Source of the DNA: a virus
Taxonomy: Duplodnaviria > Caudoviricetes
DNA length: 64,000 nt
Direction: 5' to 3' (one strand)
Virus record (IMG/VR): IMGVR_UViG_2758568506_000001
Span: 7,710 to 71,709 of that record
The notes beneath the pieces are model-generated. The model was not told where the DNA came from, made no database searches, and was given only the letters and a program-made list of their open reading frames with translations. Position 1 is the first letter of the stretch; each line of letters begins with the position of its first letter. A program made the position numbers and the translations under genes. Below, in pieces: positions 3,001 through 64,000 of the stretch.

Positions 3001-3229
3001 TGTTTTCGGCTAACTTTTTAGCATGTACACCATCTTTAGGATAAGTTAACTGTAAAGTCGGAAATTGATTATAATTCCACGTTACTTGACAGCTGACAGC
3101 GTCGCTTAAAGTTAAACCGGGAGTTGTTAAATCACTAGTAACACTAGAATACCAATGCGGATAATCTAGCAGATAATCATATTCAGCGTAGTTTGTCTGT
3201 GGTAATTGACCGATTATAATTTTTGCCAT
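1..3229 (-). CDS. Tail-associated lysin/baseplate hub (Tal, prophage endopeptidase family) with internal SH3b/SLAP-like repeats; runs off the left edge, >1070 aa; missing from the ORF track
   Basis: ATG at 3229 overlaps the Dit stop (TAATG). The same frame was open at every point checked (1, 481, 1021, 1321, 1561, 1861, 2161, 2641). Tal motif QSVLGIFGGELEFDNF; follows Dit. Confidence 0.85.
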   Translation of the reverse strand, partial: MAKIIIGQLPQTNYAEYDYLLDYPHWYSSVTSDLTTPGLTLSDAVSCQVTWNYNQFPTLQLTYPKDGVHAKKLAENTYILADINYKFVHQLFKIVHIQKEFDQLVIDANHISATLNDATVPDAIQFNSASAQDLMNQIINSMLPQKEFNFDSDVTTISNINIEKGQQAGTLLISPDAEGDTAVQSVLGIFGGELEFDNFDIHHSKKAGADTGIIVDYGKNIQSITQDRNIENMWTGAVFVATYTPGQAIATADNTDWNSWDTEYSSRATVYMAGGFVNIYDSPVEGQKLINSIKNGDKIFLGKLVHNGDMTPDGKYQINTVNGDDWYPLKGGGWINANWISFDKSGDYLVNDVTGDGTVVSNSIYDESGAGTRVRMTGTAVVAYQVGGVIHGYYSPEIGADHYRTGTTYKNGTVVKYDMAERNQNGDLWYRIGSHEWLFGPHLSLTQDGSYKKYTNNGYGEIKEGSTKYQWDAKKNEMVPTTEKVVTTSKVKSPYRWVGKGKNRHKVPNKSYHEPKEKNVKVKVHKGRATIDQTIVQGGKTYHHTKYGWISSGSIDYHRNGSYKPKSWDEILNQKLKDDSKVEIYDTPDSRNASNWSIPAGASSVNGDFKITGHQAQGGDGKTYIEVTYKGRTGWIPEDNLTDSTLHAPDDDSNSSDDYDASVDQSQKEVTVKIGPLYADGFGIDPNVDKVNTVDLSSNFKHDDQDLSGQQPDGSFVATDADISQLTQLGQNYLKQYRYGHIDVSTTVNYQEMSGINADWTQLSLYDNLYVRFQPYDLQETAEVYGVQFDCLSHHYTQIQLGKPPETYQHLMQQEIESKSNEKFSRTNGQIKRAYGLTDAVAKALKLEGNARKEAEMEIGKSIRLIDEKTGNLMVEQQKFDKALQDYHEQMEETKSWIESGGTAVLQFIDANGNQTYKDPVEIRAVNSEGSLIFNNHGLGFFGPNGETRSAIDSRGWVNAQYINAGTIQSLNAESLLVNGALKTVVGGTTLTVGTINDALPSSISSIISGTHGVVVANGSDAVVINSKNIWMIRDGVLNTKLSSSSDGSLINGLNLSRGHIYDGNGTFLKNADGYS

Positions 3230-4002
3230 TAAGCTAATCGCCTCCATCGTGGCATATACTCAGCACGGGTAATCACTCCATCTGCTGCTTTGATTGAAAT
3301 TCTATTTTCGCCAACCGGCAGTTCGGGTGGTAATAGATTCGGAAAGTGAGTCTGATTATTATAAAGCGTACCTTTAGCATCATAGGTGTCTCCTGTGTCA
3401 CCATTAAGCCAAAATTCGCCGTTCATATTATCAAACTGATAATTTAAATCGTTAACATTTAAGACAAAAGAGCCATTAGCAACAAAGTGCCAGTTGGGTA
3501 TGGCAACCCTTGTTTCAGAATTAAAAACCACACCATTTTCGGGTAAGTCAATGTAATTAATACCATTAACGCGGTATAAATAGGGTTCACAATAAAAAGT
3601 CAATTGACCAGTAGCTAAGTTTGGACAATTTTCATCTGAAGTAAACTGCGGCATTGTTTGTACAATCGCGTTGTAAGCATACTCTGGATCAATTTCAAAC
3701 TGTAAATACTGATACTGCCTTTTACCATTAACTTCAGGAGCAATTAGCCAATCAACCAACTCTCTTTCCCACTCAAATTGTGTGTAATTTAATGGTCTTT
3801 CAACTATACAATTAAATGTTTCGGTCACATTTTGATATGAACCGTTATCTTGAATAAAATCGCCTGAACGTCCTTTGATATGTGTTAAGTCAATATCTGG
3901 TACAGCATGTACTGGGTCAAAAGGATATTTTATTAAAATCCCTAAATCCGTTGAAGACTTATTATTAAAAATTAAGCCTGAAAAACCGTTAGAAATTGCC
4001 AC
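3229..4002 (-). CDS. Distal tail protein (Dit)
   Basis: 257 aa between TMP and Tal; FNNKSSTDLGI start, GRSGD motif, C-terminal PRWRRL. Confidence 0.85.
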   Translation of the reverse strand: MAISNGFSGLIFNNKSSTDLGILIKYPFDPVHAVPDIDLTHIKGRSGDFIQDNGSYQNVTETFNCIVERPLNYTQFEWERELVDWLIAPEVNGKRQYQYLQFEIDPEYAYNAIVQTMPQFTSDENCPNLATGQLTFYCEPYLYRVNGINYIDLPENGVVFNSETRVAIPNWHFVANGSFVLNVNDLNYQFDNMNGEFWLNGDTGDTYDAKGTLYNNQTHFPNLLPPELPVGENRISIKAADGVITRAEYMPRWRRLA

Positions 4003-32887: not shown

Positions 32888-33001
32888 TGCATTCTCCCTT
32901 TAATACTTCCATCAGACTTAATACAAGTCTTTATTCCATTAATAGTTAGCACCGCGTGTTTGTGTGGTGCTTTTTATTTTTGTCCTGCATTAGCAATCCT
33001 T

Positions 33002-33256
33002 TTACTCCATTCCTAAAATTCGATAAATTTTTTTTCGAATTTTAACATCACGCGGTGTTGTTCCTCCTCGAATAGCATAACTGACTAGCGATTTGCGTAT
33101 ATTTAACAAATCTGCCAAGCTGACATTTGAATACCCTTGTCGGTCCATTTCAAACTTTATATCTTTATAGATACGATTTTTAGCATCAAGCAAAGCTTTT
33201 TCCGCTGACATCTTCAACCTCCTTTTGTTACGTAAAGCGATACGTATTTTTATCAA
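33002..33256 (-). CDS. Cro-like repressor (start probably MSAEKA)
   Basis: HTH SNVSLADLLNIRKSLVSYAI; divergent from cI. Confidence 0.75.
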   Translation of the reverse strand: MIKIRIALRNKRRLKMSAEKALLDAKNRIYKDIKFEMDRQGYSNVSLADLLNIRKSLVSYAIRGGTTPRDVKIRKKIYRILGME

Positions 33257-33273
33257 TATTTTTATGAAACCCG

Positions 33274-33450
33274 TTGACTTTTATTAGCGAAAACGCTAAT
33301 ATGTAAACATAGTCGCAATTATTAAGCATGTATCTCCCCAGACATTTGCTACTTTTTTTGCGTTACGTAATTTCATAAGTAATTCAATTGACAAATATAT
33401 TATTACGCGTTTTCACTAATAAGTCAAATATTTTTAGTGTTTTCGCTAAT
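33274..33450. promoter_or_regulatory. cI/cro switch region of element A with operators TTAGYG-N4-CRCTAA
   Basis: Palindrome ATTAGCG-AAAA-CGCTAAT (33283-33300) overlapping TTGACT-17-TAATAT; two degenerate copies near 33406 and 33434. Confidence 0.6.
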
Positions 33451-33481
33451 ATTTTTTGTCAAGGATAGAAGAGGCCTTGAT

Positions 33482-33874
33482 ATGACTGCATTTGATAGAA
33501 TAAAAAAATTAGCTAAAGAACAGCATTTGACTTTAGCTAAAATAAATGAAAAAGCTGGTATAGGGACAAACTCTATATATAGATGGAAAACTCAAGTTCC
33601 TACTAGTGAAAATTTACAAAAAGTTGCCAAAGTCTTACATACTTCAACCGACTATCTGCTGGGCAATACCAATGACCCATCACAGGTGTCACAAAAATCC
33701 GACGAAGATGAAGACCTAACTTGGCAAGATTTTGGTATGGCTTACGGTGGTCGCATACCAGACGATTTACGAAAATTGTACACCGCAATGGCAGAACAAT
33801 ACGTTAAAGACCATCCTGAAGCACTTAAAGAGTCTTTTGAGGAAGAAGATGATGATTTAGATGACCTCTTATGA
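33482..33874 (+). CDS. CI/ImmR-like XRE repressor
   Basis: FDRIKKLAKEQHLTLAKI..IYRWK..STDYLLG; AGAGG SD before ATG 33482. Confidence 0.85.
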   Translation: MTAFDRIKKLAKEQHLTLAKINEKAGIGTNSIYRWKTQVPTSENLQKVAKVLHTSTDYLLGNTNDPSQVSQKSDEDEDLTWQDFGMAYGGRIPDDLRKLYTAMAEQYVKDHPEALKESFEEEDDDLDDLL

Positions 33875-34265
33875 AGATGTGATGATGTGGTTAGCTGATT
33901 ATTGCGAAAAGCATAAAATTGAAATCAATTATTTGAGTGACATGAGTCCTACAGATAAACCTCAGTCTTTTCGGTATCCCAAAATTATATTTTTGAACGA
34001 TAAGTGGTTTAATATAAATGAAAAACCATTTATATTTGCACATGAAATAGGTCACACACTGTGTGCCAGAGAAGACTTGGTTAAAAAAAGCGATACTTAT
34101 AGTAAAAAATCTAAAAATGAGTATTTTGCTAACCGTTTTGCTATTCGATTGCTTCAAAAATACTGCGAAGAAAACGACATTGTGTTTAATTCGGTCTATG
34201 ACTTTGCAAATGCTTTTGGCATTCCGAGCAAGTACTGGTATTTGTTAGAGAAAGTCTGTTCTTAA
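33861..34265 (+). CDS. ImmA/IrrE family metallopeptidase
   Basis: FAHEIGH, EYFANRFAI. Confidence 0.9.
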   Translation: MTSYEDVMMWLADYCEKHKIEINYLSDMSPTDKPQSFRYPKIIFLNDKWFNINEKPFIFAHEIGHTLCAREDLVKKSDTYSKKSKNEYFANRFAIRLLQKYCEENDIVFNSVYDFANAFGIPSKYWYLLEKVCS

Positions 34266-34322
34266 CAAGATTGTCCATAGAGCCAGTGACATAAAACCTA
34301 TGGCATAAAGGAGGTTTTAAAC

Positions 34323-34874
34323 ATGAAATTAAAAAAAGTAATGGCAGCAGGAGTGGCTTCACTAACACTACTAGCCACCAGCGTAAATGTGGTTAGCGCT
34401 CATTCTGTAGGCACATTAATTGTACTAGACGCTAATATGCCAGCGTATAATACTAAAGGCCAAAAAATCAAAAAAGTACGTCCTTTTGCTAAAGGCAATC
34501 TTTATGAGATTCTTGGCGCCAAAAAAATAAAAGGAAAAAAATTTTATCGACTTACAAAAAAGAAGTATATAATTGCGGACGACTCTAAACTGATAGATGA
34601 CCGTACTATTCCTACTGAAAAACCAATCGAAAAGCCTTGGGAATCCAGACATTTGGTTGATACCGACAAAGGAGGATTAGTAACTCAAATTAAAAAAGCT
34701 TTAGCATTAGAAGGCGAAGATAGACTTGAAGCTGAGCAAGAGATTGCCGCTCAAATGAACATGAATCCTAAATCCGTCACTTCAGCAACGCAAAAAGGAT
34801 TTGAAGACCGATTAAGAAGCTATATTAATTCGATGGACTCTGCCAAAAACTGGATTGAGAACGGCGGTAAATAA
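34323..34874 (+). CDS. Secreted SLAP-domain protein
   Basis: Signal peptide ending VVSA; YNTKGQKIKK..GAKKIKGKKFYRLTKKKYI. Confidence 0.7.
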   Translation: MKLKKVMAAGVASLTLLATSVNVVSAHSVGTLIVLDANMPAYNTKGQKIKKVRPFAKGNLYEILGAKKIKGKKFYRLTKKKYIIADDSKLIDDRTIPTEKPIEKPWESRHLVDTDKGGLVTQIKKALALEGEDRLEAEQEIAAQMNMNPKSVTSATQKGFEDRLRSYINSMDSAKNWIENGGK

Positions 34875-34891
34875 TTTGAATTGTAGCTTTT

Positions 34892-34917
34892 AAGAACCCT
34901 GATTTATGGGTTCTTTT
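34892..34917. terminator. Terminator between convergent SLAP and rep genes
   Basis: AAGAACCC/GGGTTCTT hairpin plus T-tract. Confidence 0.7.
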
Positions 34918-35673
34918 TTATACCTGTGGTTGAGTATCCCCAAACGTTTGTGCTTCAAAGTCAGCAAACCATTGTTGGATACTATCCATATCGGCAGTAC
35001 AATTTTCAGCCACATGCTTAGACCAGTCTGTAGCTTTTTCAATATGCTTTTTAAATGGTTGATAGTGGGACTTAGTAGATTGACGCTGTTTATATTGCTG
35101 GTAATATCTCTTATTCGATTTGGTTGGTTGATGTTGTTGTTCAGTCTGATTGCTATTTACAGTTTGAGATTCAGATTGTGATTGATTTGAATTGAATTTA
35201 TAGACTGTAGTAATTTTTGTGTTACTCTCTGGTAATCTTTGGTTATTGCTTGGAACTGTGAGTCCCTTTCCATTGGGACTGTCAGTCCCTTTGCTTTGGA
35301 ACTGTGAGTCCTCTTGGCAGGAACTGGTAGTCCCTTCGGCATCTAATTCAGATTCTCCTAGCATTTCAGCTAATTTTTTGTAATCAACACGATACCACTT
35401 AGTTCTGTCAATTCTCATTTTGTTGAAGTTGTCAGCAACTAATAAACCCATTTTTACCAGTGATTTTAAGTATCTTTGTACAGTTTTAACGCTAAGCCAA
35501 TCGAATTGTTCCTGCCAGTCTTTGGCCGTGTTATAAACCCAACTATAGCCTTCTCTAATATTGACGTTTTTGTCTGTCCAGTAGCTAATTTGGCTAACCA
35601 TGATAGCTTTATCAACACCAATTTTTCTTGCAAGTCTGTGGTCAAATCCTCTGTTTAATTCTAATGTTGTCAT
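34918..35673 (-). CDS. Replication initiator (N-terminal wHTH, internal iterons)
   Basis: KAIMVSQISYW..WVYNT..DW..TVQRYLKSL..DRTKWYRVDY. Confidence 0.75.
   Translation of the reverse strand: MTTLELNRGFDHRLARKIGVDKAIMVSQISYWTDKNVNIREGYSWVYNTAKDWQEQFDWLSVKTVQRYLKSLVKMGLLVADNFNKMRIDRTKWYRVDYKKLAEMLGESELDAEGTTSSCQEDSQFQSKGTDSPNGKGLTVPSNNQRLPESNTKITTVYKFNSNQSQSESQTVNSNQTEQQHQPTKSNKRYYQQYKQRQSTKSHYQPFKKHIEKATDWSKHVAENCTADMDSIQQWFADFEAQTFGDTQPQV
35250..35335. repeat. Four ~23-bp iterons inside rep
   Basis: TTGG(A/G)ACTGT(G/C)AGTCCCT-type units at 35250, 35273, 35296, 35318; AT-rich tract adjacent. Confidence 0.75.
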
Positions 35674-35675
35674 GG

Positions 35676-36011
35676 TTACGCCTCCTTACTACCTTTAATT
35701 AGTTCATCAATTTTTTCATAGTCAACTCTGTACCATTTAGTTTTGTCATACTTAGTCTTGTTAAAATTGCCTGTAATTAGTAAACCTTGCTTCTCTAATT
35801 CTGAAAAAGCTCGTTTTAACGTGCTAAGAGCTACCCAGCTAATTTTTTTATGCCAATCTTTTAAACTTTTACATACCCACTTTTTACTATCATGAGTGTT
35901 TGTCGATTTAGTTGTTTCTTCATCAACCAATTGAATGATAATCGCTTCCGTCATACCTAACTTGTTTACGATTTTTTCATCTGCTACAATTTTTCTGCCG
36001 TAATTAATCAT
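35676..36011 (-). CDS. Stand-alone initiator-type wHTH, paralogue of the rep N-terminus
   Basis: EAIIIQ..KKWVCKSLKDW..TLKRAFSELEKQGLL..DKTKWYRVDY; AGGAG SD. Confidence 0.7.
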   Translation of the reverse strand: MINYGRKIVADEKIVNKLGMTEAIIIQLVDEETTKSTNTHDSKKWVCKSLKDWHKKISWVALSTLKRAFSELEKQGLLITGNFNKTKYDKTKWYRVDYEKIDELIKGSKEA

Positions 36012-36039
36012 GTTTATATCTCCTATAAAAAATTAATAA

Positions 36040-36406
36040 ATAAAAAGAACTAAGTAACACCGTGCCTAGTCTACTTAGTTCTCTTACTTAATTTTTATAG
36101 TTTGCTACTTGATAAAAGCTACAAAAAAGTATAAAATACTATACATAAGTTAAAGAGAACTTAAGTATGTAGATATTAGGCTTAAGTTAAAAGGTTGACT
36201 AACTCTAACCGCCAAGTAAGAGTTAATTCAACAAAGTAACATGTGGTGTTACTAATATGAATCAGGTAAGGCTTTAAAAGGTCTTGCTTTTTTCATATCT
36301 TCTTTTTTATTCAGTTTTCAATGCTATTTCTAGTCTGCTAATTTCAGCGGAACTGAAATAGCTTTTTTATATTACTGATTTTAACGTCTTCCAAAGTAAA
36401 AAGCAA
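36040..36406 (-). promoter_or_regulatory. rep promoter and ~360-nt leader with terminator/antiterminator
   Basis: TTGCTT-17-TAAAAT (36406-36378); segment 36072-36085 pairs with either 36046-36056 (terminator plus U-tract) or 36153-36167. Confidence 0.7.
36144..36293 (+). ncRNA. Predicted antisense copy-control RNA (~150 nt)
   Basis: TTGATA-17-TAAAAT promoter (36109-36137), two stem-loops, terminator GTAAGGC/GTCTTGC plus T6. Confidence 0.65.
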
Positions 36407-36419
36407 GCCTTAATTATTC

Positions 36420-36620
36420 ATGTAGTATTTACTACAAGTGTTAAAAGCTACAAGTATTATTGTATGCAATATTACAATACTACAATAATACATGTAGTTT
36501 TTACCATGCTGATTAACCCAACATACAAAAGTATTTTTCAAAATAATTCTGTTGTATAGTTGCATTATTGTATGCTATACTACAAGTAGTAAATGCTACA
36601 TGTATAAATTACTACATTAT
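36420..36620. repeat. Candidate parS centromere / par operator repeats
   Basis: Repeated CTACAAGT/CTACATGT and ATTATTGTATGC x2 directly upstream of parA. Confidence 0.5.
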
Positions 36621-36643
36621 AATCAATTAAGGAGGCTCATAAA

Positions 36644-37450
36644 ATGACCCAAATTATTACATTTGGTAACTTTAAAGGAGGGGTAGGCAAAACTACCAAT
36701 GCTGTTCAAGTTGCCTATGAACTATCTAAACGTAATGCTAAAACTTTACTCGTAGATTTAGACCCACAAGCTAATGCGACAAATATCCTGCTAAAAACTA
36801 AAGCGAATATAGACAATGAGTTAGCACATTTTGAATCTTCTCTAATGGTAGCTGTTCAAAATGAAAATTTAGAATCTTCCATAATTACAGTTAAGGATAA
36901 TCTTGATTTAATGGGTTCAGCACCCGATTTTGCTCTTTTCCCTAGGCACATGGAAAAAATGTTCCCTAATAGTTATATAGACCGTGTTAAATACTTAAGT
37001 ACTTTATTAGCACCATTATCTAAAAAGTACGACTATGTAATCATTGATATACCACCAACGATATCTTTAATCACAGACGCTGCTTTATACGCATCTGACT
37101 GGTGCTTAGTAATCATGCAAACACAACAACAGTCTTTTGATGGGGCAACAGCATTTATTGAATACATTCAAGATGACATCATTAATAAATATGGGGCACC
37201 AAGGTTAGACGTTATTGGCATTTTAGCAGTTCTTATTCAAGCTGGAGCCCCAGTTGATGAGTCAACAATGATTAATGCCAAAAAATATTTTGGCGAAGAC
37301 AACATTCTACCAACAGCTATACACAATATGCAGCGCTTAAAACGATATGGAATAACTGGCATTACTGATACGCAAAGACACGATAAAAAAGTTTTTGATG
37401 TTTATGCAAAGGTTACAGATGAAATTCTAGAAAGAATAGGAGATAAATAA
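36644..37450 (+). CDS. parA: ParA/Soj partition ATPase (type Ib)
   Basis: KGGVGKTT, LVDLDPQANAT, IIDIPP; no N-terminal HTH. Confidence 0.95.
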   Translation: MTQIITFGNFKGGVGKTTNAVQVAYELSKRNAKTLLVDLDPQANATNILLKTKANIDNELAHFESSLMVAVQNENLESSIITVKDNLDLMGSAPDFALFPRHMEKMFPNSYIDRVKYLSTLLAPLSKKYDYVIIDIPPTISLITDAALYASDWCLVIMQTQQQSFDGATAFIEYIQDDIINKYGAPRLDVIGILAVLIQAGAPVDESTMINAKKYFGEDNILPTAIHNMQRLKRYGITGITDTQRHDKKVFDVYAKVTDEILERIGDK

Positions 37451-37752
37451 TGAGTTTAGTAAATAGCAATCGATCAGTCACTGATTTCAAGCCAAAAAAA
37501 ATGATGACTATGGATGATTTAACGGAAGAAAAAGCAACTAAATCTGTCACATTTGACACTAGTATCCGTATAAGTAATCATTTAAAAAATAAGCTTCAAG
37601 CTATGATTGCTTTAGGGTATACATCTACTATAAAAGGTGCAATCGCTTTAACATTTGATGCTTACTATAACAATTTAAGTGATTCTGAAAAACGAGATTT
37701 AGATGTTCAGATAAAAACTTTTGAAAAACGAGACGCAAAGTTAAAAAAATGA
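37450..37752 (+). CDS. Small centromere-binding partner (RHH-type, DUF5388-like)
   Basis: Coupled to parA (TAATG); TSIRISNHLKNKL beta-strand/helix. Confidence 0.7.
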   Translation: MSLVNSNRSVTDFKPKKMMTMDDLTEEKATKSVTFDTSIRISNHLKNKLQAMIALGYTSTIKGAIALTFDAYYNNLSDSEKRDLDVQIKTFEKRDAKLKK

Positions 37753-37935
37753 AACATTATTTTTTATAGTGCATAAATTATATACAGTAGATTGTATACA
37801 GTAACACTATCATTATTAACTAGACCACTGGTAACTTTACATAATAGCCATTAAACGAAGTAGCTAAAAAACATGACTAAATCAAGACTGATAATTGCCA
37901 CAAATAATAGTTTGTGAAATCCTCATGTTTCACGG

Positions 37936-37967
37936 ATAAGAATCCCATTAATTCGGGGTTCTTTTTT
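37936..37967 (+). terminator. Terminator downstream of the par operon
   Basis: AAGAATCCC/GGGGTTCTT hairpin plus T-tract. Confidence 0.6.
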
Positions 37968-38081
37968 TCGTCCAAAATAAAATTCACAAAGTATACCAAT
38001 TTAATTTTTGACAAATAAAAAGCAGCTAAACCTAATAGGTCTAGCCGCTTTGCTAAATGTCTAATCCGTGGTATCATATCC

Positions 38082-38253
38082 ATGAGATATGAAGTGATAG
38101 TGGAACGGAGCTATGAGATTAAACTTTTAGGCACTGCGTTCCGAGGTACATGGGCGTGTACCTCATAGCCAGTGCCGTTAACCAAAAGGATTGTCAAATA
38201 GAAAACTCCTTTTCGAATACTACGAGGTACATGATAAATCATGTACCATTTTT
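38082..38253. ncRNA. Structured RNA candidate with crossing helices, between convergent promoters and terminators
   Basis: Perfect pairings GGAACG/CGTTCC, GCTATGAG/CTCATAGC, GGCACTG/CAGTGCC and hairpin GAGGTACA/TGTACCTC within 38102-38176. Confidence 0.45.
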
Positions 38254-38350
38254 TATTATATCAAAAATGGTCAGCATCTGCATTTTAGTTAATTTTATAC
38301 ACAAAAAGCCACCCAGAAATTAATCTGAGTGTCTTTTTTTATGTTGTTAT

Positions 38351-38653
38351 TTATATTTTTTGATAGTAATCAAATCCCACATTCATGATGGCCAGCTCGG
38401 TTAAATCCGTGTCTAACTTGTCCATATCAGATTGCGATCTAGAGCTTAAACCATTGTCATCAATAATTTTGTTTAGCACTTCTGAAACAGAATCCTCATT
38501 CGAATCAAAAATACCGTGATTATCGTAGATAACCATATCAGCGATTTTTGTTAAATCGTCGCTTTCGACTTTTGCAACTGTTCTGGAAAAAGCTCCTTTA
38601 GGACTATCTTCTAGCAATTCACCAATCATTATAACTGAGTTTTCATTTTTCAT
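38351..38653 (-). CDS. Hypothetical protein (cassette 1)
   Basis: Own promoter repeat, AAGGAG SD and terminator. Confidence 0.65.
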   Translation of the reverse strand: MKNENSVIMIGELLEDSPKGAFSRTVAKVESDDLTKIADMVIYDNHGIFDSNEDSVSEVLNKIIDDNGLSSRSQSDMDKLDTDLTELAIMNVGFDYYQKI

Positions 38654-38833
38654 TTTTAAGTTCTCCTTTATCTTTTTTTCAACTTTATAATTATAGTATA
38701 GGCTTAAGTCTATAATTTGTCAAGACTTTTTTGCATAAAAATTCAAAAAAATGTATAATATTATTACTCCGAGTTTTGGATTTCAACTTTATAAAAAAAG
38801 ACACCTAGCTTAATTTCTAGGTGTCTTTTTTGT

Positions 38834-39031
38834 TTAATCATTTAATTCATCAGTAATAGTTTCTTTTGTTTCTTGTAAGTCATCAAAGTAGCTTACGCCA
38901 TCATCAATACTGTCTGGCCATAGAACCCAACAATTTTGTTCTTTATCGAACTCTAAAGTGCCGTACCTATCTTCGTCTACATATACATCAAATCTGTTTG
39001 TATCAACTTCGTTAAATTCTACTTTTTTCAT
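38834..39031 (-). CDS. Hypothetical acidic protein (cassette 2)
   Basis: Own promoter repeat, AAGGAG SD and terminator. Confidence 0.65.
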   Translation of the reverse strand: MKKVEFNEVDTNRFDVYVDEDRYGTLEFDKEQNCWVLWPDSIDDGVSYFDDLQETKETITDELND

Positions 39032-39097
39032 TTTAAGTTCTCCTTTTTCTTTCTTTCAAACTTTATAATTATAGTATAGACTTAAGTCTATAATTTG

Positions 39098-39268
39098 TCA
39101 ACTATTTTTTTCAACGGTTTTAATAAATTTACTTAAGTCATCCAAATCTTCGGGCGTTGCCATTTTGATAAAGCGTTTGGCTTGTGCTTTGGCATCAGTG
39201 TATAGCTTCTTTTCACGGTTGGCAGCACGCCATTTTTTGGTGGCTCTTTTTTGTGCTTCTGTTGTCAC
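39098..39268 (-). CDS. Small basic protein (cassette 3)
   Basis: GTG start with AAGGAG SD; EAQKRATKKW..AKRFIK..ATPEDLDDL. Confidence 0.65.
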   Translation of the reverse strand: MTTEAQKRATKKWRAANREKKLYTDAKAQAKRFIKMATPEDLDDLSKFIKTVEKNS

Positions 39269-39333
39269 GCATTTTTCTCCTTTCAACTTTATAATTATAG
39301 TATAGACTTAAGTCTATAATTTGTCAACAGAAA

Positions 39334-39510
39334 TTTATATTTTTTTCCGTTTTTCTGCAATTATTTTTTCTAATTCGTCTAAATCCTCGCTGGTAGCAAA
39401 GCGACGAATGAAACTCTTGGCTTGTGACCTGTAGACTAAATATTTTTTTCGGTCTTTATTCTTCTCGTCCCACTTTTTATTAGCACGTTTCTTTGCTTCA
39501 CTTAAAGTCA
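39334..39510 (-). CDS. Small basic protein, paralogue of 39098-39268 (not in ORF track)
   Basis: MTLSEAKKRANKKWDEKNKDRKKYLVYRSQAKSFIRRFATSEDLDELEKIIAEKRKKI. Confidence 0.65.
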
Positions 39511-39822
39511 TAATAATTCACCAATTTCAAATAATATTATTCCAAGCAAGATAGCAAAAAGTGGAGCTTAGCTCCACATCTTTTGGTTATTTACAAAAGG
39601 CTTTAGCAATTTTTTCATTTGATTCTTGTTGAAGTCTTTTTTGCTTCTTTGACATCTATTTCTCACCCCCTTACATATTATATAACGCACTACATAACGT
39701 GTACTGTCAACTATTTTTTTAAAAAAAGCCACCCTAGTTTTACCTAGAGTGACTTCAAAAAGGAATTAAATCATGTGATAAAAATTTAATTCATATTCCA
39801 TTCGTATATAAGTATACATCAA

Positions 39823-40527
39823 CTATTTAGTTAATGCAATATTTAGCCCGCTAAAACCTTTGGTCAAATCCTTAGCAAACTTGGCTTTTGATATGCCAAT
39901 TTTAGGCAAGTATTGCCAAGGGTCGGTATGGTCTGTATTACTGTAGCCATGTTGCACAAGCCAAGAGTGAGTTTTGATTCCACGATATGAGTTAGTGTCT
40001 AGAGCTAATGGTATGCCATACTTTTTAGCTGACCATCTGAGCCAGTTTACATAGTGTTTATACGCTTTTAAGGCTCGTCTGTGATTGCTAAACTCGCATA
40101 ATTCAATTTGTACAGGAGCCAAACTATTAGCAGGACTACCAGCACCCCACGCTACATATCCAAGCTCTCCCACTTGATATATGCTTTTATCGTCAATTAC
40201 AAAGTGCACGTAAGTCTGGCTAACATTGATGCCATTTTTCATGTTGCGGGAAATAGCCCAGGCTTCTCCATTTGGTGTAGCGGTTGAGTGAGCAATAATA
40301 AGTCTCGGTGTTGCCAGTTGTGAACTTCCTTTATTGTCACCAGTTTGCTTTTTGAGCGTCTTTAAATCCTTGTCACGCTCTGCAATTTGGCTCTGTAGCG
40401 ACTGATTGGTCTTGCCCAGCTCATCTGTCTTAGCTTTCATTGCTTCGACATCAGCACCATGCAAGCTCATGACCTTGTCAATTTGTTCATCGATTAAAGC
40501 TAATTTTTTTAATTCTTCACGTCTCAT
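39823..40527 (-). pseudogene. In-frame chimera: Gp20-type scaffolding N-terminus fused to Amidase_2 endolysin
   Basis: MRREELKKL..DEQIDKVMSLHG..KQTGDN followed by GSSQ..IIAHSTA..VHF..IELCE..HTDP. Confidence 0.85.
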
Positions 40528-41216: not shown

Positions 41217-42641
41217 TTATTTTAAATAATCTGGCTTCTGAGGCGTGACATGACAGCCTCTCTTACTGTAGCCGATACGTCCTTGCTTAGTTGGATAATA
41301 ATTGCCATTTATGTCCGCCCATAAGCCTATATAAGAATTATGGTTGAACAAAACCTTTTGTTTATCCGTATTCTGGCGTTTCTTACCATATTTGTCAATT
41401 AATGCTTGAGTTTCAACAGGTGAAATAATCAATTCACTTACTGGTCGTTTACGACCTTTAGCATAGTTATCAAATTCGGGCGTTCCCTTTACATGTTTAT
41501 TATACTGCTCTGCATTGAGTTCATTCCAGTTATATTTTCCCGATTTTGGAATATATCTAGCAGCAGTATTCGGTAACGACTCATTTTGCCTTTGGTAATC
41601 AACCGCCTTCTTCCACTGGTCGAAAGTCATGTTGTCAACATAAGTGCCTTTACCAGTTTCTGGATCTCTTGACCACCTTACTCGGTCATCTGGTAAGACT
41701 TCAATATAAGGAACTGTTGTACATCTACAATAAGGATGAATTAACGGATAATTAATGCCATCTTTTCTATCTTTCAGGTCAAAAATCTCACCATCTAAGT
41801 GCCCACATTCTTCGCAAGTGTGGGACTCTAACGTTGCTAAATACTGGTACTGTTCAACTCCCTCTTCTTTGTAAGCATCTGCAGTAGCTGTTTCGGCAAT
41901 GTGCCCCATTTCAGTAATCACTAAGCGATGCAATTGATAGTCTTCAACGTCTCTCAATCGCTGGCGCATCATTTTAAACACTTGCTCATGAGAATGTCCT
42001 AAAACAGAGCCCCTTAATAACGCATCACCTAATTCATTAGGTAACACCTCAGTGTAGTTTTTCCAAATCCGTTTAGAGAAGTTGCTGCCATTCCAGGGCT
42101 TGTTGACAATTACTTTGACTTGATATTCATTAACATTGGCAAAGTTACTAGATAATTTAGCCTGCTCTAATTGTGTTAAGTAGATGCTGTGCATGTATGT
42201 TTGTTGAAATTGGTTAGATAGACTTTGTGCTAATTTGTTACTCTCAGCTGTCGCATATTGACTTAATAGGTTGGTCAGTTGCTCGTCTATGTTCTCAAGT
42301 CTTGATAATTGACTTTTGAAATATTCGGCATCTAGTTCTTTATCAAAGCCACCTTCTTTAGCCTTACGCTTGAACTCCTTCAATGTCATGTGCCAATCAC
42401 GAGTACCAATTGTGCTCAAGATTTTACGAGCATCTTCTTTGCTGATTTTTTGATTGTTGGCATAACGATTGAGCCAGTATTCAACTTCCTGCTCTAGTAT
42501 TGGCTGAACCTCTTTTAAACGAGCACGCATGGCTGACTCATATTCAGCTGCATTAGTCAACTGATTGTCTTTTTCCTGTAAAAACCTCTTTTGCCAATAG
42601 CTACGACTTCTTGCTGTCTTCTTGCTCATCGTCATCATCAC
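41217..42641 (-). CDS. MuF/SPP1 gp7 minor head protein with C-terminal Ntox50-like toxin domain
   Basis: FSKRIW, HPYCRCTT; tail QYNKHVKG..IGLW..TKQGRIGYSKRGCHVTP. Confidence 0.8.
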   Translation of the reverse strand: MMMTMSKKTARSRSYWQKRFLQEKDNQLTNAAEYESAMRARLKEVQPILEQEVEYWLNRYANNQKISKEDARKILSTIGTRDWHMTLKEFKRKAKEGGFDKELDAEYFKSQLSRLENIDEQLTNLLSQYATAESNKLAQSLSNQFQQTYMHSIYLTQLEQAKLSSNFANVNEYQVKVIVNKPWNGSNFSKRIWKNYTEVLPNELGDALLRGSVLGHSHEQVFKMMRQRLRDVEDYQLHRLVITEMGHIAETATADAYKEEGVEQYQYLATLESHTCEECGHLDGEIFDLKDRKDGINYPLIHPYCRCTTVPYIEVLPDDRVRWSRDPETGKGTYVDNMTFDQWKKAVDYQRQNESLPNTAARYIPKSGKYNWNELNAEQYNKHVKGTPEFDNYAKGRKRPVSELIISPVETQALIDKYGKKRQNTDKQKVLFNHNSYIGLWADINGNYYPTKQGRIGYSKRGCHVTPQKPDYLK

Positions 42642-45932: not shown

Positions 45933-48167
45933 TTATTCAAGCTTAATATTTTGATTGCCTTGTTCATAAACATCAATTCGATTCTGAACGTCAATTTTGT
46001 TTACCAACCAGCCACGAAAATTTGCTTGTTGAATAAAGTCATCAATTCGATTAACATTGTTCATTTCTTTTAGAGTAACAACAATACCAAATTTCAGACC
46101 TCGACCATCTTTGTTAGATAATCTTTCCTTCTCCCTGAGTTCAATTCCCCAAATTGGATCTTCACCATAAGTACATCTCGGTCTTGGATTCGTTGTAATC
46201 TGCTCACTGATGGTCTTAACATTATCCCATTTTCTGAACTGCTTTCTGGCCATTGCCTCATTAACTAGTGGGTAACCATCATTTTGATGATTATTATTAA
46301 TCGATTTGATTTTGGCTTTACCTTTAACACTCTGTAACCGACCAAAAGACAGGTCAAGTTCTGTATTAGTGTAGTCAACCCCTTGATTTCTTGTGCACTT
46401 TGGAAAATAACACAGAGTTGCTTTGGCAAAAAAAGGATACTTATTTTTAACAACAGGAACGGGAATTTGATAATTATAAGTATTCCATTTTTCTGCTATA
46501 CCTTCTAAGGTAAACTTAATCTCATTATCAGGACAATTAATAATATCTTCAATTCTAACAGGTACTACACCATTGCCTATCATTTCAAGATCCCCATTAG
46601 TTTCATTTTTTCTGGACCAGCCAACTGATGAATCGATCAACAAGGCCTTAGCAATTTCTCTGCTAAGTCCCAAAATATCAATCAAGTAAGCTAATTTTCG
46701 TGCAATCCAAGGAGCAGCAAAAGAAGTCCCGCTCACAATAACTTCACCATTAGGACCATAAGCCTTGAGAGGATTTTTTTTATCACCATCATAATAACTT
46801 AAATCTGGTTTAGTAAAAAAAGATAAAACTATTCCCTTACGCGAATATGGTTCTGGGTTACGGCTACTATCAACAGCATTTACAACAACTGAATTAATTG
46901 AGTCAGCAGGAGCACCTATTTTTTTTGGAGGCTCACCTAGCTCTTTATTAGTACCAGCAATTACAAAAAGCACATTATTTTCAAATTGAATTTCATCTAG
47001 AGCTGCTCCTTCAGCTGATACAAAATTCCGATTAATTTCGAATTTTGAACCTAGCGAAAGATTCCAAACATGAATTTCAGGGTTGGCAACCACCGCTTCT
47101 CTTATACTCTTAATAATGGCGAAAGAACTAAAACCTTTTTCAACTGAGACACCAAAATGTTTAACTCTAAACCTGCCACAACCGTCATCAAAAATCGGAT
47201 TTAATGCTGGGCCATCAACAATAATTGATGAAACAGCCGTACCATGATCATAATCTTCCGAAGTTGTACTGATATTAGAATCAAGCATGTTTTGATAACT
47301 GACCCAGTCATTAAAATAAACACTTTGATCAAAAAGTGTATCAATTACGCCAATTATTGGTTCATCATTAGGGGCTGGAATGCTACGCTGATAAGTATCT
47401 GTTGAGCTCGCAGCAACTGACGGAGAAAGCTGGGCCAAATCCTCAGTCGCCATCGATACTAAGTAAGGCGCTTTTTCCATCAATAAATTAACAGAATCAG
47501 TATCCATTAACACCGTTCTATCATCTAAAAAATTTATCTGATAAGTCTTGATTCCAATTTTATCCAATACTTTACTTAAATCTTCATCCGTTTGATAAAA
47601 GGAAACTATGGAATTGTTATTAATAGAAAAATCAGCTTTCTCCACATCAAATTTAGCAACAAACCAAGCATCTATAACAATTTTTTGAAACTGTGTTTTA
47701 CTAATTGAAAACCGCGGAAAGTCAATTTCCTCTAAATTAGATTTATTATTAAATTGAATATTAGAAACATTTCCATTAAAGTATTGATCTAGGATTTTAG
47801 CGACTTTTTCACCGTCACTAATTGCATTTTTCATTTGCAAATTAGATATTAAATAAGTAATTATGTGCTTTTCATCTTGATCAAACTTAGAGCCAACAAT
47901 CAATTTATCAGGGTCACTACCAAAAAAGCCTTTAATCCGATTAGATTTAGCAATATTTTGGCGATAATGCGCACTAACCAGCATTTTCGAGATGATATTG
48001 TGCTGTTTTTGCCAAAACTGCTGAATGACTTTCAAATCGTTGACTAAGTTTCTAATTATGGTACTGCTTACCATGACACCTTTTCTATTTGGTAGTGTTA
48101 GCACTACCTGACTTTGTGGGTGTTTTTGCTGTTCAAATTTTCCTTTAAGAGTTAAAATTTCATTCAT
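45933..48167 (-). CDS. ietS: S8 subtilase, IetS-like
   Basis: Catalytic triad IGVIDT / DHGTAV / GTSFAAP; coupled to an AAA ATPase. Confidence 0.85.
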   Translation of the reverse strand: MNEILTLKGKFEQQKHPQSQVVLTLPNRKGVMVSSTIIRNLVNDLKVIQQFWQKQHNIISKMLVSAHYRQNIAKSNRIKGFFGSDPDKLIVGSKFDQDEKHIITYLISNLQMKNAISDGEKVAKILDQYFNGNVSNIQFNNKSNLEEIDFPRFSISKTQFQKIVIDAWFVAKFDVEKADFSINNNSIVSFYQTDEDLSKVLDKIGIKTYQINFLDDRTVLMDTDSVNLLMEKAPYLVSMATEDLAQLSPSVAASSTDTYQRSIPAPNDEPIIGVIDTLFDQSVYFNDWVSYQNMLDSNISTTSEDYDHGTAVSSIIVDGPALNPIFDDGCGRFRVKHFGVSVEKGFSSFAIIKSIREAVVANPEIHVWNLSLGSKFEINRNFVSAEGAALDEIQFENNVLFVIAGTNKELGEPPKKIGAPADSINSVVVNAVDSSRNPEPYSRKGIVLSFFTKPDLSYYDGDKKNPLKAYGPNGEVIVSGTSFAAPWIARKLAYLIDILGLSREIAKALLIDSSVGWSRKNETNGDLEMIGNGVVPVRIEDIINCPDNEIKFTLEGIAEKWNTYNYQIPVPVVKNKYPFFAKATLCYFPKCTRNQGVDYTNTELDLSFGRLQSVKGKAKIKSINNNHQNDGYPLVNEAMARKQFRKWDNVKTISEQITTNPRPRCTYGEDPIWGIELREKERLSNKDGRGLKFGIVVTLKEMNNVNRIDDFIQQANFRGWLVNKIDVQNRIDVYEQGNQNIKLE

Positions 48168-49212
48168 CCATTTTCTCCTTCAACATTCTAGCAGCCTGAC
48201 TCTTTGAAATATTCTTTAAGACACCAATTTCTCTTACAGTAAAGCCTTGCCTTTTTAACTTTGTTGGATCAAGATCCTGATTTTGCTTATTCAGAGATTG
48301 ATAAAGTCGAATCAAATAATCAAAATGTGCGTCTGGATTACTAAAAGCTAAAGAAACTTTAATGAGATTTTTCAATTCACCAGGATTAGGAAGAGCAGGA
48401 CAAGTATTAAGAATTTTTTTAAATAACTTAGTATCTCTACTTACTTTAGTAAAATTTTTCAGATAATTATTTAATATTCCAACTCCTATATCATCTACTA
48501 AGTCAGTTTTTGAATAACGATCAAAATTGACGATACTATCAAACCTACGTTGAAAAGCTTTGTCCAGTTGTTTATATAAGTTAGTAGTAGCAATGATGAC
48601 TACTTCCTCATTAACATTATCCAGTGCTTTTAGGATATTAGAAGTAGCACGACCCATTTCTCTAATATCATTTGTATTAACTCGATCCAAAGCAATTACA
48701 TCAATTTCATCAAACAAAATGACTACTTTATCTGGATGTGGCATCCGATTTATTTCATTAAAGACTATTGAAATATTTTTAGCAGTTTGACCCATTTTAC
48801 TATCAATTATTTCATTAAAATCAACAGAATACAAAGACCGTTGTAATAATCGAGCTACTTGCTTGGCTGATTCAGTTTTTCCTGTACCAGGTGCACCTTC
48901 AAACAAAAACTTGTTGATACCAACATGATGATTAACAGCATTCATAATACCTTTAATATCAGCCATAATAGGAATTGGTAAAAACAAAGAAGGACTATCA
49001 AGAGCAATTTTTTTAAAAAATTGACTTTCAAAAGAAATAGACTGAGGCTTAAACATATTAACATTTGAAATTAGGCTCATCACATATTGAGCTAACTGGT
49101 AGTCACCTTCTTCATCAAAGCTTCGTGCCACATCATTAGAAGTCTTTCTAAACAGATTGTCATCGCAATCATAATGGGCACGAATCAAATTAATTATTTC
49201 CTTCTTCTTCAT
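48160..49212 (-). CDS. ietA: AAA ATPase, IetA-like
   Basis: GAPGTGKT, LFDEID, AFQRRFD; overlaps the subtilase start. Confidence 0.85.
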   Translation of the reverse strand: MKKKEIINLIRAHYDCDDNLFRKTSNDVARSFDEEGDYQLAQYVMSLISNVNMFKPQSISFESQFFKKIALDSPSLFLPIPIMADIKGIMNAVNHHVGINKFLFEGAPGTGKTESAKQVARLLQRSLYSVDFNEIIDSKMGQTAKNISIVFNEINRMPHPDKVVILFDEIDVIALDRVNTNDIREMGRATSNILKALDNVNEEVVIIATTNLYKQLDKAFQRRFDSIVNFDRYSKTDLVDDIGVGILNNYLKNFTKVSRDTKLFKKILNTCPALPNPGELKNLIKVSLAFSNPDAHFDYLIRLYQSLNKQNQDLDPTKLKRQGFTVREIGVLKNISKSQAARMLKEKMDE

Positions 49213-60100: not shown

Positions 60101-60976
60101 ATGAAATATACTATGAATCTTAAAAAAATTATACATAGTTTAATGTTGAAAAAAGCTCAGCAATATAAGCATAAAAAGTATATGCTTACAAAATCTTCTC
60201 AGATTATAGCTGCTAAACAAAAAAAGGAAAACTATATTACTAAGCTTGAAGACAAATACCGAGAAAATAACTATAATAATATTCCTTATATTAAAGATGA
60301 AGAATCAGCCGAATATGTTTTAAATAATTGGAATACTTCCGCCCCCGTACCACGTGCTTACATGAAAAATCAGATTTTTAAGGGCAAAAAGCTTGTTACG
60401 GGCGAAATAGTTTTATTATGGTGGTTAACATCTCGAAAAAATACTAATAGTATTCCGCTTTACTTTTATAGAGAATATGGAATTAATGCTAATGAAAGTA
60501 TTAAAAAACTGCAACGTTACGGATTATTATCTACTGAAAAAAGACTAACTTTAGATGGAAAACAACTTCTAAAAAACAAACAAAAAATTATTCATAACCA
60601 TAAAACCGATAAAACTTGGGCAGGAATTGGCCCGATTAAGTATCATTATAACAAAGTCAAAGAAGCCGAAGAGTTAGAAAATGCAACCTATCAAGAATAT
60701 TTAGATAGTGGCATAAAGCAATATTCTTTTCTAGCTACACTTGATACAAAAACTTGCTCTATATGTGGTAACTTAGATGGAAAAATATTCGACATTAAAG
60801 AAACAAAGACAGGTATCAACTATCCTTTAATACATCCTGGTTGTAGATGTACAACTATGCCATACATCGAGGGCTTGCCTGATAGTTCCGAAAGATGGGC
60901 ACGAAATCCGAAAACGGGAAAGGGAGAATATATCGATAATATTAGTTTTAACAAATGGAAAAGTAAATATATTTAG
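60101..60976 (+). CDS. Chimeric protein: winged-helix-like domain plus MuF Cys-rich subdomain
   Basis: C-terminal LATLD..TCSICG.LDG..HPGCRCTT matches MuF 41217-42641. Confidence 0.75.
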   Translation: MKYTMNLKKIIHSLMLKKAQQYKHKKYMLTKSSQIIAAKQKKENYITKLEDKYRENNYNNIPYIKDEESAEYVLNNWNTSAPVPRAYMKNQIFKGKKLVTGEIVLLWWLTSRKNTNSIPLYFYREYGINANESIKKLQRYGLLSTEKRLTLDGKQLLKNKQKIIHNHKTDKTWAGIGPIKYHYNKVKEAEELENATYQEYLDSGIKQYSFLATLDTKTCSICGNLDGKIFDIKETKTGINYPLIHPGCRCTTMPYIEGLPDSSERWARNPKTGKGEYIDNISFNKWKSKYI

Positions 60977-62914: not shown

Positions 62915-64000
62915 ATGGCATATTTCAAAAAACGCGGCAACAGTTGGCAAGCACAAGTATCGTGGTATGACACAGACAATACTAGGAAGTATAAAACCAA
63001 AAGTGGCTTTGCTACTAAGACTCAAGCTAAAAAGTGGGCTAATGAATTCGAAGTTGCTAAAGATAAAAATCAAATAACAAATTATGACCCTATTTTTATT
63101 GAATACTTTTTAGATTGGGCCAAAACTTATCGCATCCCTGGCAAAACAACCACTTCTGTTGATAGATATTACCAAATTTACAAGCACCTAAAAGAATATT
63201 TTAAAAATCAAAAACTAAGTAAAATTAGTCGATCTCAATATCAAAAATTTATTAACGAATATGGTAGCAAACACGCTAAAATAACAGTACAAAAAAATCA
63301 TAGTACAATTAGCGCTTGCGTGAATGACGCAATTGCAGATAAGATTATTACCACTGATTTTACTAAACGAATTAATTTAATTTGGGATAAAGACAAAACT
63401 AGAACGGTTGATTATTTAACTAATAAAGAAGTTGTTGCATTACTTGCAAATTTAGAAAATAAAATTAATCCACGTTTTACTAGTCGTTACATGATAATAA
63501 CTGCGCTTTATACTGGAATGCGAATTGGCGAAATCATGGCTCTTGAATGGACTGATATTAATTTTAAGAAAAATACCATTTCAATCACTAAGACTTACGA
63601 TTATATCAATAACAAACTTAAAGAACCCAAAACCCCTTCTTCTATTAGAACGATTAGAGTCAATGATAGTTTGCTAAATTTATTGCAACAGCTTAACACT
63701 AATAATCAAAAATTTGTCTTTGCAGACAAAAATGGTAAGCTTCCATCACCCGCTGGCATAAATAAAGTTTTGCGCATCCACTTAAAAGAATGCGATATTA
63801 ATCGAAGTGGTTTCCATTTTCATAGTCTAAGACACACGCATGTGGCTATGCTTCTTTTTAAAGGAATTGATCTATATGCTATTTCTAAGCGTTTAGGACA
63901 CTCAAATATGACTATAACAGCCAAAGCATATGCTTACATGTTAGAAGAATATAAGGCTCAGCAAGATGACAAAATTGAGAACATACTTAATGAGATATAA
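62915..64000 (+). CDS. int: Tyrosine integrase
   Basis: TGMRIGE, FHFHSLRHTH, RLGHSN, YAY catalytic motifs; N-terminal arm-binding domain. Confidence 0.97.
   Translation: MAYFKKRGNSWQAQVSWYDTDNTRKYKTKSGFATKTQAKKWANEFEVAKDKNQITNYDPIFIEYFLDWAKTYRIPGKTTTSVDRYYQIYKHLKEYFKNQKLSKISRSQYQKFINEYGSKHAKITVQKNHSTISACVNDAIADKIITTDFTKRINLIWDKDKTRTVDYLTNKEVVALLANLENKINPRFTSRYMIITALYTGMRIGEIMALEWTDINFKKNTISITKTYDYINNKLKEPKTPSSIRTIRVNDSLLNLLQQLNTNNQKFVFADKNGKLPSPAGINKVLRIHLKECDINRSGFHFHSLRHTHVAMLLFKGIDLYAISKRLGHSNMTITAKAYAYMLEEYKAQQDDKIENILNEI

Follow-up and report, generated by a model that had tools for sequence, protein, structure and literature searches.

A rep/par module in the integrase position of a Lactobacillus siphovirus, an apparent phage-plasmid recombined into a defective prophage

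We analysed a 64,000-bp window of Caudoviricetes DNA (bases 7710-71709 of the 71,709-bp IMG/VR provirus record IMGVR_UViG_2758568506_000001). The subject is a group of genes at positions 34918-37752, which a sequence-only reading had described as a plasmid replicon and partition module standing in place of an integrase. The record is a piece of an 899-kb contig of the NCBI assembly GCA_003692805.1. Two phage-derived elements, designated A and B, stand in tandem in the record, and the minus strand bears nearly all of the genes. The module belongs to A. Positions refer to the window unless the record or a contig is named, and the features are collected in Table 1.

The rep/par module and its phage surroundings

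The module consists of two replication genes, rep1 and rep2, and, divergent from them, parA and a gene for a DUF5388 protein, with an AT-rich spacer of 632 bp between rep and parA. Every gene that the sequence-only reading had named in rep, in par and on their flanks was found where that reading had placed it. The stop codon of rep1 lies 2 nt before the start of rep2, and the DUF5388 gene overlaps the stop codon of parA.

Both Rep proteins matched PHROG families of replication initiators or DnaD-like proteins through the same N-terminal domain, which in Rep1 stands alone. Rep2, the main initiator, is composed of a winged-helix N-terminal domain, a disordered linker rich in Q, S and N, and a helical C-terminal domain. 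In the AlphaFold model of Rep2, residues 8-107 formed a winged helix with a pLDDT of 80-90, and residues 108-184 were below 50. When the N-terminal domain was used for a structure search, the N-terminal domain of a RepA_N initiator (4pta_D) ranked first with a Z of 9.7 over 96 aligned residues, tied with generic winged-helix proteins (9.5-8.0); the N-terminal domain of DnaD scored 7.8, and the Foldseek E-values were about 1e-2. In Pfam, nothing was found for Rep at E ≤ 0.01 except for a sub-threshold unrelated match, and RepA_N (PF06970) was not matched. NCBIfam and the PDB sequences gave no match to Rep.

Subsequently, repeats in and around rep were examined. Four tandem repeats with the consensus TTGGAACTGTGAGTCCCTTTCCA were found inside rep2. 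Their motif, GGRACTGNNAGTCC, occurs four times in the window against 0.13 expected, all four within the iteron array, which covers codons ~111-141 and falls in the predicted disordered linker. In RepA_N-type replicons the origin is located inside the rep gene, and the iterons of A may likewise act as the origin. Another sequence, AGAACTTAAGTA, had been considered as a rep-proximal iteron and was dropped, as it has 12 sites against 12.4 expected; for the inverted pair at 36043-36085, an attenuator hairpin is the more plausible reading. This hairpin lies just before the ribosome-binding site of rep1. Upstream of it, a candidate countertranscript of ~156 nt on the plus strand has a fold of four hairpins (z = -5.1). 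G001, a 31,752-bp relative described below, shares the promoter-like -10 element, the terminator and the stems of the attenuator in conserved form, although its loops differ. These features suggest that rep would be under copy control by an antisense RNA and an attenuator. A comparison with Rfam gave nothing meaningful in window 33000-40000, nor in a stretch of G001 that is free of open reading frames.

ParA carries the Walker A motif KGGVGKT at residues 11-17 and is a small ParA that has no N-terminal DNA-binding domain, as in type Ib partition systems. Its best NCBIfam model was PrgP, with 186 bits against a cut-off of 400, which makes it a relative and not an equivalog. It is 66% identical to the ParA of a Dellaglioa plasmid and 44-48% identical to that of Enterococcus phage EF62phi. 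The Dellaglioa plasmid, which has a MobA/MobL relaxase, carries a par locus of the same family, ParA followed by a DUF5388 protein; in the relatives of A, too, ParA is invariably followed by the DUF5388 gene or a small gene. The DUF5388 protein gave no match among the PDB sequences and is presumed to be the centromere-binding partner of ParA, which would bind DNA. Short repeats, both direct and inverted, form a cluster just upstream of parA and consist of CTACAWGTA and variants. The window has five CTACAWGTA sites, four of which fall within 157 bp (36448-36604); about one site is expected in 64 kb, and none of 100 shuffled sequences reached five sites. Judging from this repeat pattern, the cluster is probably the centromere and par operator, as expected for type Ib. 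Separately, two 14-bp direct repeats, ATTATATACAGTAG and ATTGTATACAGTAA, were observed at 37777-37803, just downstream of the DUF5388 gene, and may be a second partition site or a terminator-associated site.

The rest of A provides a complete set for morphogenesis, packaging and lysis: TerS, HNH, TerL, portal, protease, major head, major tail, tape measure, holin and amidase. The separate lytic replicon that had been ascribed to A was also identified, as helicase, AAA_24, Prim-Pol and VapE genes among the early genes on the minus strand. No tyrosine integrase (PF00589) was found in A or in G001, and the sole match in the whole 71.7-kb record was the integrase of B; no serine recombinase (PF00239) was found in the whole record or in G001, and no tRNA genes were found in the window.

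The proposal that rep/par holds the position of int/attP agrees with a comparison to Lactobacillus gasseri phage phiadh (NC_000896.1), whose TerL is 74% identical to that of A. In phiadh the order is lys-attP-intG-ORFA-metalloprotease-repressor/cro; attP and intG lie between the lysin and the lysogeny block, whereas A has parBA and rep there. The lysogeny block itself runs in both phages in the order of an exclusion-type gene, metalloprotease, repressor and cro. The two phages also have their packaging module in common; HNH and a P27-type TerS lie around the annotated cos site in phiadh.

Table 1 Features of the rep/par module, of element A and of element B (window positions unless the record is named).
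Feature	Position	Strand	Description and basis
Element A	record left end (lysis genes, left of window) to ~37752		gene map
Holin and lysin of A	record 2980-3869, left of window		
Lytic genes of A in window	1-33256	-	early genes, helicase/AAA_24/Prim-Pol/VapE, HNH, TerS, TerL, portal, protease, major head, major tail, tape measure, tail; PHROG and Pfam matches, synteny with G001 and 43-kb contigs
cro-like gene	33002-33256	-	
Lysogeny block of A	33437-34874	+	three genes below; 97-100% identical to free 43-kb contigs
HTH repressor (cI)	33437-33874	+	Pfam HTH_3
ImmA/M78 metalloprotease	33861-34265	+	Pfam Peptidase_M78
SLAP-domain protein	34323-34874	+	Pfam SlpA
rep2	34918-35673	-	251 amino acids; phrog_6493 (E 2e-33), phrog_11233 and phrog_9773, E 2e-33 to 6e-19
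Iterons	35250-35341		four tandem 22-23-bp repeats, putative plasmid origin; Tandem Repeats Finder and repeat finder
rep1	35676-36011	-	111 amino acids; phrog_6493, E 1e-23
rep leader/control region	36012-36410		promoter and terminator scan
Attenuator-like hairpin and U-run	~36043-36085	-	
Candidate countertranscript	promoter-like 36109-36137, terminator-like 36264-36289	+	~156 nt
Repeat cluster (CTACAWGTA and variants)	36410-36625		
parA	36644-37450	+	268 amino acids, deviant-Walker-A ATPase; AAA_31 E 8e-40, phrog_164 E 4e-59
DUF5388 protein	37450-37752	+	100 amino acids; PF17363 E 3e-22
A-type small genes, par to crossover repeat	37753-39320		92-96% identical to free 43-kb contig L014, 73-80% to other copy at record left end
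Right copy of crossover repeat	39321-40038		100% identical to record 2478-3195; self-BLAST, site-pattern analysis, exact-run check
Scaffold(1-67)::amidase fusion of B	39823-40527	-	Pfam Phage_scaffold and Amidase_2; same 234-amino-acid architecture in sister genomes that have no A
Element B	~37817 to integrase 62915-64000		gene map; host ABC-transporter genes after integrase
Tyrosine integrase of B	62915-64000	+	Pfam Phage_integrase E 4e-27

Free relatives of element A and exchange of the replicon

Relatives of A were found as phage-sized contigs of two classes. The first comprises contigs of 43,069, 43,197 and 43,175 bp from three metagenome samples. Two of these overlap over 15 kb at 100% identity and end differently, one starting in VapE and the other ending in the lysin, which indicates that they are circular permutations of one genome. 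Circular contigs with the junction between rep/par and cI, named in the sequence-only reading as a thing to look for, were thus obtained. The gene order in this class is lysin, small genes, DUF5388, ParA, Rep, SlpA, M78 and HTH, followed by the early genes, and it recurs in contigs of 37 kb and 21.5 kb; the assignment of the module to phage A accordingly holds in independent contigs. The 37-kb relative has, in addition, a HicAB pair between lysin and par.

The proteins of the 43-kb contigs were compared with those of A. The identity was 100% for ParA and cI, 99% for DUF5388, 98% for ImmA, 97% for SLAP, 94-98% for helicase, AAA_24, Prim-Pol and VapE, and 87% for Gp157, and Rep diverged. By these identities A is essentially the same phage as the free 43-kb genome.

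The second class includes G001, which has a terminal repeat of 127 bp and rep and par beside the lysin, and whose Rep is named in NCBI for Lactobacillus sp. ESL0225. It also includes two contigs of 33,215 bp from different samples, which are permuted relative to each other. This class has tail, lysis, par and rep genes in common with A; it lacks an integrase, a recognisable cI and any further replication initiator. Tracing Rep homologues to their contigs showed that every close relative has Rep beside ParA and a small downstream gene, and that the pair adjoins an amidase lysin wherever the locus reaches the lysis genes. The same replicon sits on two different phage backbones. The near-identical permuted 43-kb contigs and the terminal-repeat contig G001 are indirect evidence that A would be maintained extrachromosomally in lysogens.

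Two further observations concern the layout of these relatives. Directly downstream of rep, the 31.7-33-kb contigs contain 1.9-2.4 kb with no open reading frame of at least 60 amino acids (L006:11098-12975, which is G001; L022:10781-13146; L030:1437-3723), and then a conserved protein of 414-419 amino acids that has no PHROG or recorded Pfam match; cI/cro or ImmA was not recognisable in these contigs. A third design was seen in the ENA contigs L032 and L033, which carry P0064: the lysogeny block consists of ParA and a small protein, SlpA and two S24 repressors, and a Rep homologue of 304 amino acids lies in the early lytic operon. The Lactobacillus brevis element pBRV434 is similar. Other searches were less productive. 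When the module and both elements were compared with the PLSDB plasmids and the INPHARED phages by megablast, the only match was one of 165 bp to L. helveticus phages, and neither IMG/VR pattern scans with ParA and with ImmA nor a scan of the species genomes with the Rep alignment yielded relatives.

The divergence of Rep was then resolved by domain. The closest Rep pair is that of G001, with 81% identity for Rep1 and 86% for Rep2. Compared with the Rep of the 43-kb relatives, Rep2 is ~90% identical in the C-terminal domain, whereas the N-terminal domain and the linker differ. These relatives have a single Rep, and Rep1 is collinear with its N-terminal domain and 50% identical to that domain at the protein level; a value of ~89% read from a DNA alignment was ruled out by the protein comparison. 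The gene rep1 is kept upstream of rep2 in A and G001 and is not a separate gene in the 43-kb relatives. The iterons are conserved in G001 and partly in the contig L021, and distant relatives carry other palindromic repeats at the same place. On these alignments, replicon specificity, namely the Rep N-terminal domain together with the iterons, is exchanged against a constant C-terminal domain. Rep1 may serve as an incompatibility or exclusion factor.

The junction between element A and prophage B

We next describe how A is joined to B. Self-BLAST revealed that record 1193-3471, the lysin and post-lysin region at the left end, is repeated at window 37817-40314. Within these direct repeats, the two copies are identical at 718 of 718 positions and lie 44,552 bp apart, and the identity falls sharply on both sides of this run. 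As the sequence-only reading had suggested inspecting, the sequence left of the window was also examined; it contains the holin and lysin of A, the second copy of the 718-bp repeat and HicAB pairs. The latter are two tandem HicA/HicB pairs at the outer end of the B remnant (L004:691-2180), and they are conserved in sister genomes.

Two sister genomes carry the site uninterrupted, in the order HicAB-HicAB, small genes and the 234-amino-acid scaffold::amidase fusion. To the left of the 718-bp run, the sisters are 94-96% identical to the left copy versus 83-89% to the right copy. To the right of the run, about 140 of 150 informative sites in sister L019 agree with the right copy. Conversely, the free A-type contig is 92-96% identical to the par-side flank versus 73-80% to the other copy. 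Such a reciprocal change of parental type on the two sides of a perfect repeat, together with the empty sites, points to a single homologous crossover of a 44.5-kb circle with the chromosome, and supports the view that circular A entered defective prophage B in this way and not by microhomology recombination. Since the scaffold::amidase fusion is also present in the sisters that have no A, B had lost its genes from capsid to holin before A arrived. The order from lysin to par given in the sequence-only reading stands and is also that of the free contigs; however, the lysin that adjoins par in the linear map (39823-40527) is the scaffold::amidase hybrid of B and not the lysin of A, whose own intact lysin is at record 2980-3525.

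Several points weigh against this account of the junction. The sisters are just 86-96% identical across the site, so that the crossover can be placed no more precisely than within the 718-bp run. In the free 43-kb contigs, the lysin is just 79-90% identical to either copy; the A-type identity of the right-hand part of the left copy is therefore deduced from its contiguity with the holin and tail genes of A. Finally, perfect identity over 718 bp would also be expected if an assembler had threaded a free circular A through a repeat that it shares with B, that is, if a collapsed repeat node had been traversed twice. In that case A would be a phage-plasmid joined to the chromosome by an assembly path and not recombined with it. 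In line with this, Ellegaard et al. (2015, PMC4449606) described Firm-5 phage regions for which some read pairs backed circularisation and others a chromosomal placement. On the other hand, a recent true crossover gives equally perfect identity, and the 899-kb contig passes through both copies, which needs spanning information whichever structure is true. We consider the assembly artefact improbable; if it were true, the integration claim would be removed and the phage-plasmid claim would be strengthened.

Other genes of B were noted. An AAA ATPase (350 amino acids) and then a Peptidase_S8 protein (744 amino acids) are encoded on the minus strand at 45933-49212, just upstream of the terminase genes, and may form a defence-type gene pair; a reading of these two genes as a primase was ruled out by their identification as Peptidase_S8 and AAA proteins. 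The MuF head-morphogenesis protein of B (41217-42641) ends in a C-terminal Ntox50 toxin domain, and remnants of Ntox50 and of ADP-ribosyltransferase occur in the MuF/Ntox50 region of B in the sister genomes. A second protein with a MuF fragment (60101-60976) lies in the cargo on the lysogeny side of B, beside DUF5067 and DUF6414 genes. The public virus catalogue lists the 71.7-kb record as a single provirus with an estimated completeness of 100%. In this record, an intact 44.5-kb element is combined with a defective prophage from which the capsid and tail genes are missing. That prophage-calling tools report such a composite as one complete provirus is a practical caution.

Interpretation and comparison with known systems

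Taken together, these findings make it very probable that A, with a unit length of 44,552 bp, is a complete phiadh-like siphovirus of the cos type from a bee-gut-type Lactobacillus, has no integrase, uses plasmid-type rep/par for lysogenic maintenance and has recombined into B. The proposal of a phage-plasmid recombined into another prophage is thereby sustained by the lack of an integrase in A, by the direct repeats with their identical run of 718 bp and by the empty sites in the sister genomes. As A has a cI/ImmA switch and no integrase, a temperate life would need an autonomous replicon.

We infer the following course for replication, copy control, partition and the reversibility of integration. 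Rep2, as a winged-helix initiator, would bind the four iterons within its own gene and recruit host replication proteins via the conserved C-terminal domain, and the countertranscript of ~156 nt, acting on the leader attenuator, would throttle rep expression. ParA and the DUF5388 protein would segregate the copies via the CTACAWGTA cluster upstream of parA, and the Prim-Pol/VapE replicon would serve lytic growth. Circular A would have entered the chromosome by a single RecA-type crossover between its own lysin/post-lysin region and the equivalent region of the resident, already defective B. This would have left the perfect direct repeat of 718 bp on each side of A, and recombination between the repeats could free the circle again.

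The role of rep/par in the upkeep of a plasmid prophage was weighed against a purely phage-type role, in which Rep would be a phage replisome organiser for the lytic or carrier state, ParA an accessory, and A would persist otherwise. Two points count against the plasmid role: Rep fits no curated plasmid-initiator family, with no plasmid Rep model of Pfam or NCBIfam matched, and the wider Rep family, which PHROGs annotate as DnaD-like or O-like, includes initiators in phage early lytic operons, distant homologues of Rep among them. However, A already has a full lytic replicon with Prim-Pol, VapE and helicase, and its rep lies outside the lytic operon, past the repressor block. Furthermore, internal iterons, a leader and a candidate antisense RNA all belong to rep itself, which is divergently paired with a par locus that bears its own repeat cluster; the 31.7-33-kb relatives have no other replication initiator. 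A purely phage-type role is therefore quite unlikely in our estimation. The remaining view, that the module is an unrelated plasmid fragment caught between two independently integrated prophages, could appeal to the occurrence of the par family on an ordinary mobilisable plasmid and to the lower guanine-plus-cytosine content of the region (0.29-0.32), but is rejected as having hardly any probability, since at least five independent phage-sized contigs contain this module, identically placed and oriented, with the neighbour genes of A on both sides, the free 43-kb phage has a ParA with 100% identity, neither an integrase nor an att site belongs to A itself, and the boundaries of A are homologous repeats.

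With A taken as a phage-plasmid, its nearest counterparts were sought among described elements. The replication module of A resembles those of RepA_N-type replicons of Firmicutes (pSK41, pAD1, and prgW of pCF10 with PrgP/PrgO) in having a winged-helix N-terminal domain and a separate C-terminal domain, iterons within rep and a divergent par operon. In pSK41, rep is controlled by an antisense RNA and an attenuator, and the candidate elements of A resemble these. On the present comparisons this is a resemblance in design and not a shown membership, as PF06970 was unmatched, the fold match was tied and the PrgP score was far below the cut-off.

The temperate phage EF62phi (NC_017732.1), which we take to be extrachromosomal in E. 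faecalis 62, is similar to A in its gene order: a small protein gene and ParA in one direction, a DnaD-like initiator in the other, and then cI followed by the early genes. EF62phi has a second pair of initiator and DnaC genes in the early region, a HicAB pair and no annotated integrase. Unlike A, EF62phi is not a phiadh-like siphovirus; it has 30.5 kb, and collar and connector proteins are annotated in it. Its initiator has no detectable similarity to the Rep of A, and the small partner proteins show hardly any (E 0.02).

Pfeifer et al. (2021, PMC7969092) defined the pLP39 community of predicted Lactobacillus phage-plasmids, none of which was experimentally verified according to that paper. 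Its members pBRV434 (NZ_CP113123.1) and Lactobacillus phage Lb (NC_047983.1) are, like A, circular with ~43 kb and full siphovirus or myovirus gene sets. Both share with A the ParA and small downstream protein between lysin and repressor block, an S-layer/SLAP-type gene beside the repressor and the lack of an annotated integrase; the ParA of phage Lb is 43% identical to that of A. In contrast to A, pBRV434 carries no separate rep beside par; its homologue of Rep is encoded in the early lytic operon, next to a DnaC-like ATPase. The dedicated divergent rep with internal iterons and candidate antisense control and the separate Prim-Pol/VapE lytic replicon set A apart from the pLP39 members, to which it has no similarity at the nucleotide level. 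Phage-plasmids in which repA adjoins parA have been reported from Apilactobacillus kunkeei, a symbiont of honey bees (PMC9648514).

Chromosomally integrated P1-like phage-plasmids are also known, and the cause of their integration was left to be clarified (Pfeifer and Rocha 2024, PMC10879196). As in A, the replication and partition genes are still encoded and the element lies inside the chromosome. Unlike in the P1-like cases, the route of A is legible from the sequence, as a homologous crossover within 718 bp that are identical in A and in a defective prophage already resident, and empty sites are at hand for comparison.

A wider model can be put forward only with considerable doubt. Defective prophages would be landing pads for integrase-less phage-plasmids, and 718-bp repeats would substitute for att, so that plasmid and chromosomal states alternate by RecA crossover in a shared lysis cassette, like F in Hfr strains. 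Swaps of N-terminal domain and iterons would run through the whole family, and the leftover rep1 would block phage-plasmids with related iterons.

Phage-plasmids are already known, and A is a well-resolved new example and not a new kind of element; its added value lies in a fully legible integration route and a documented replicon swap. Phage-plasmids of Lactobacillaceae have so far been mostly predictions, and their route into chromosomes has been described as unresolved (PMC10879196). The locus offers a phiadh-like phage in which int/attP is replaced by rep/par, near-identical free circular relatives and an integration that can be read base by base. A and its relatives would thus provide a tractable system for incompatibility and replicon exchange in the phages of gut symbionts.

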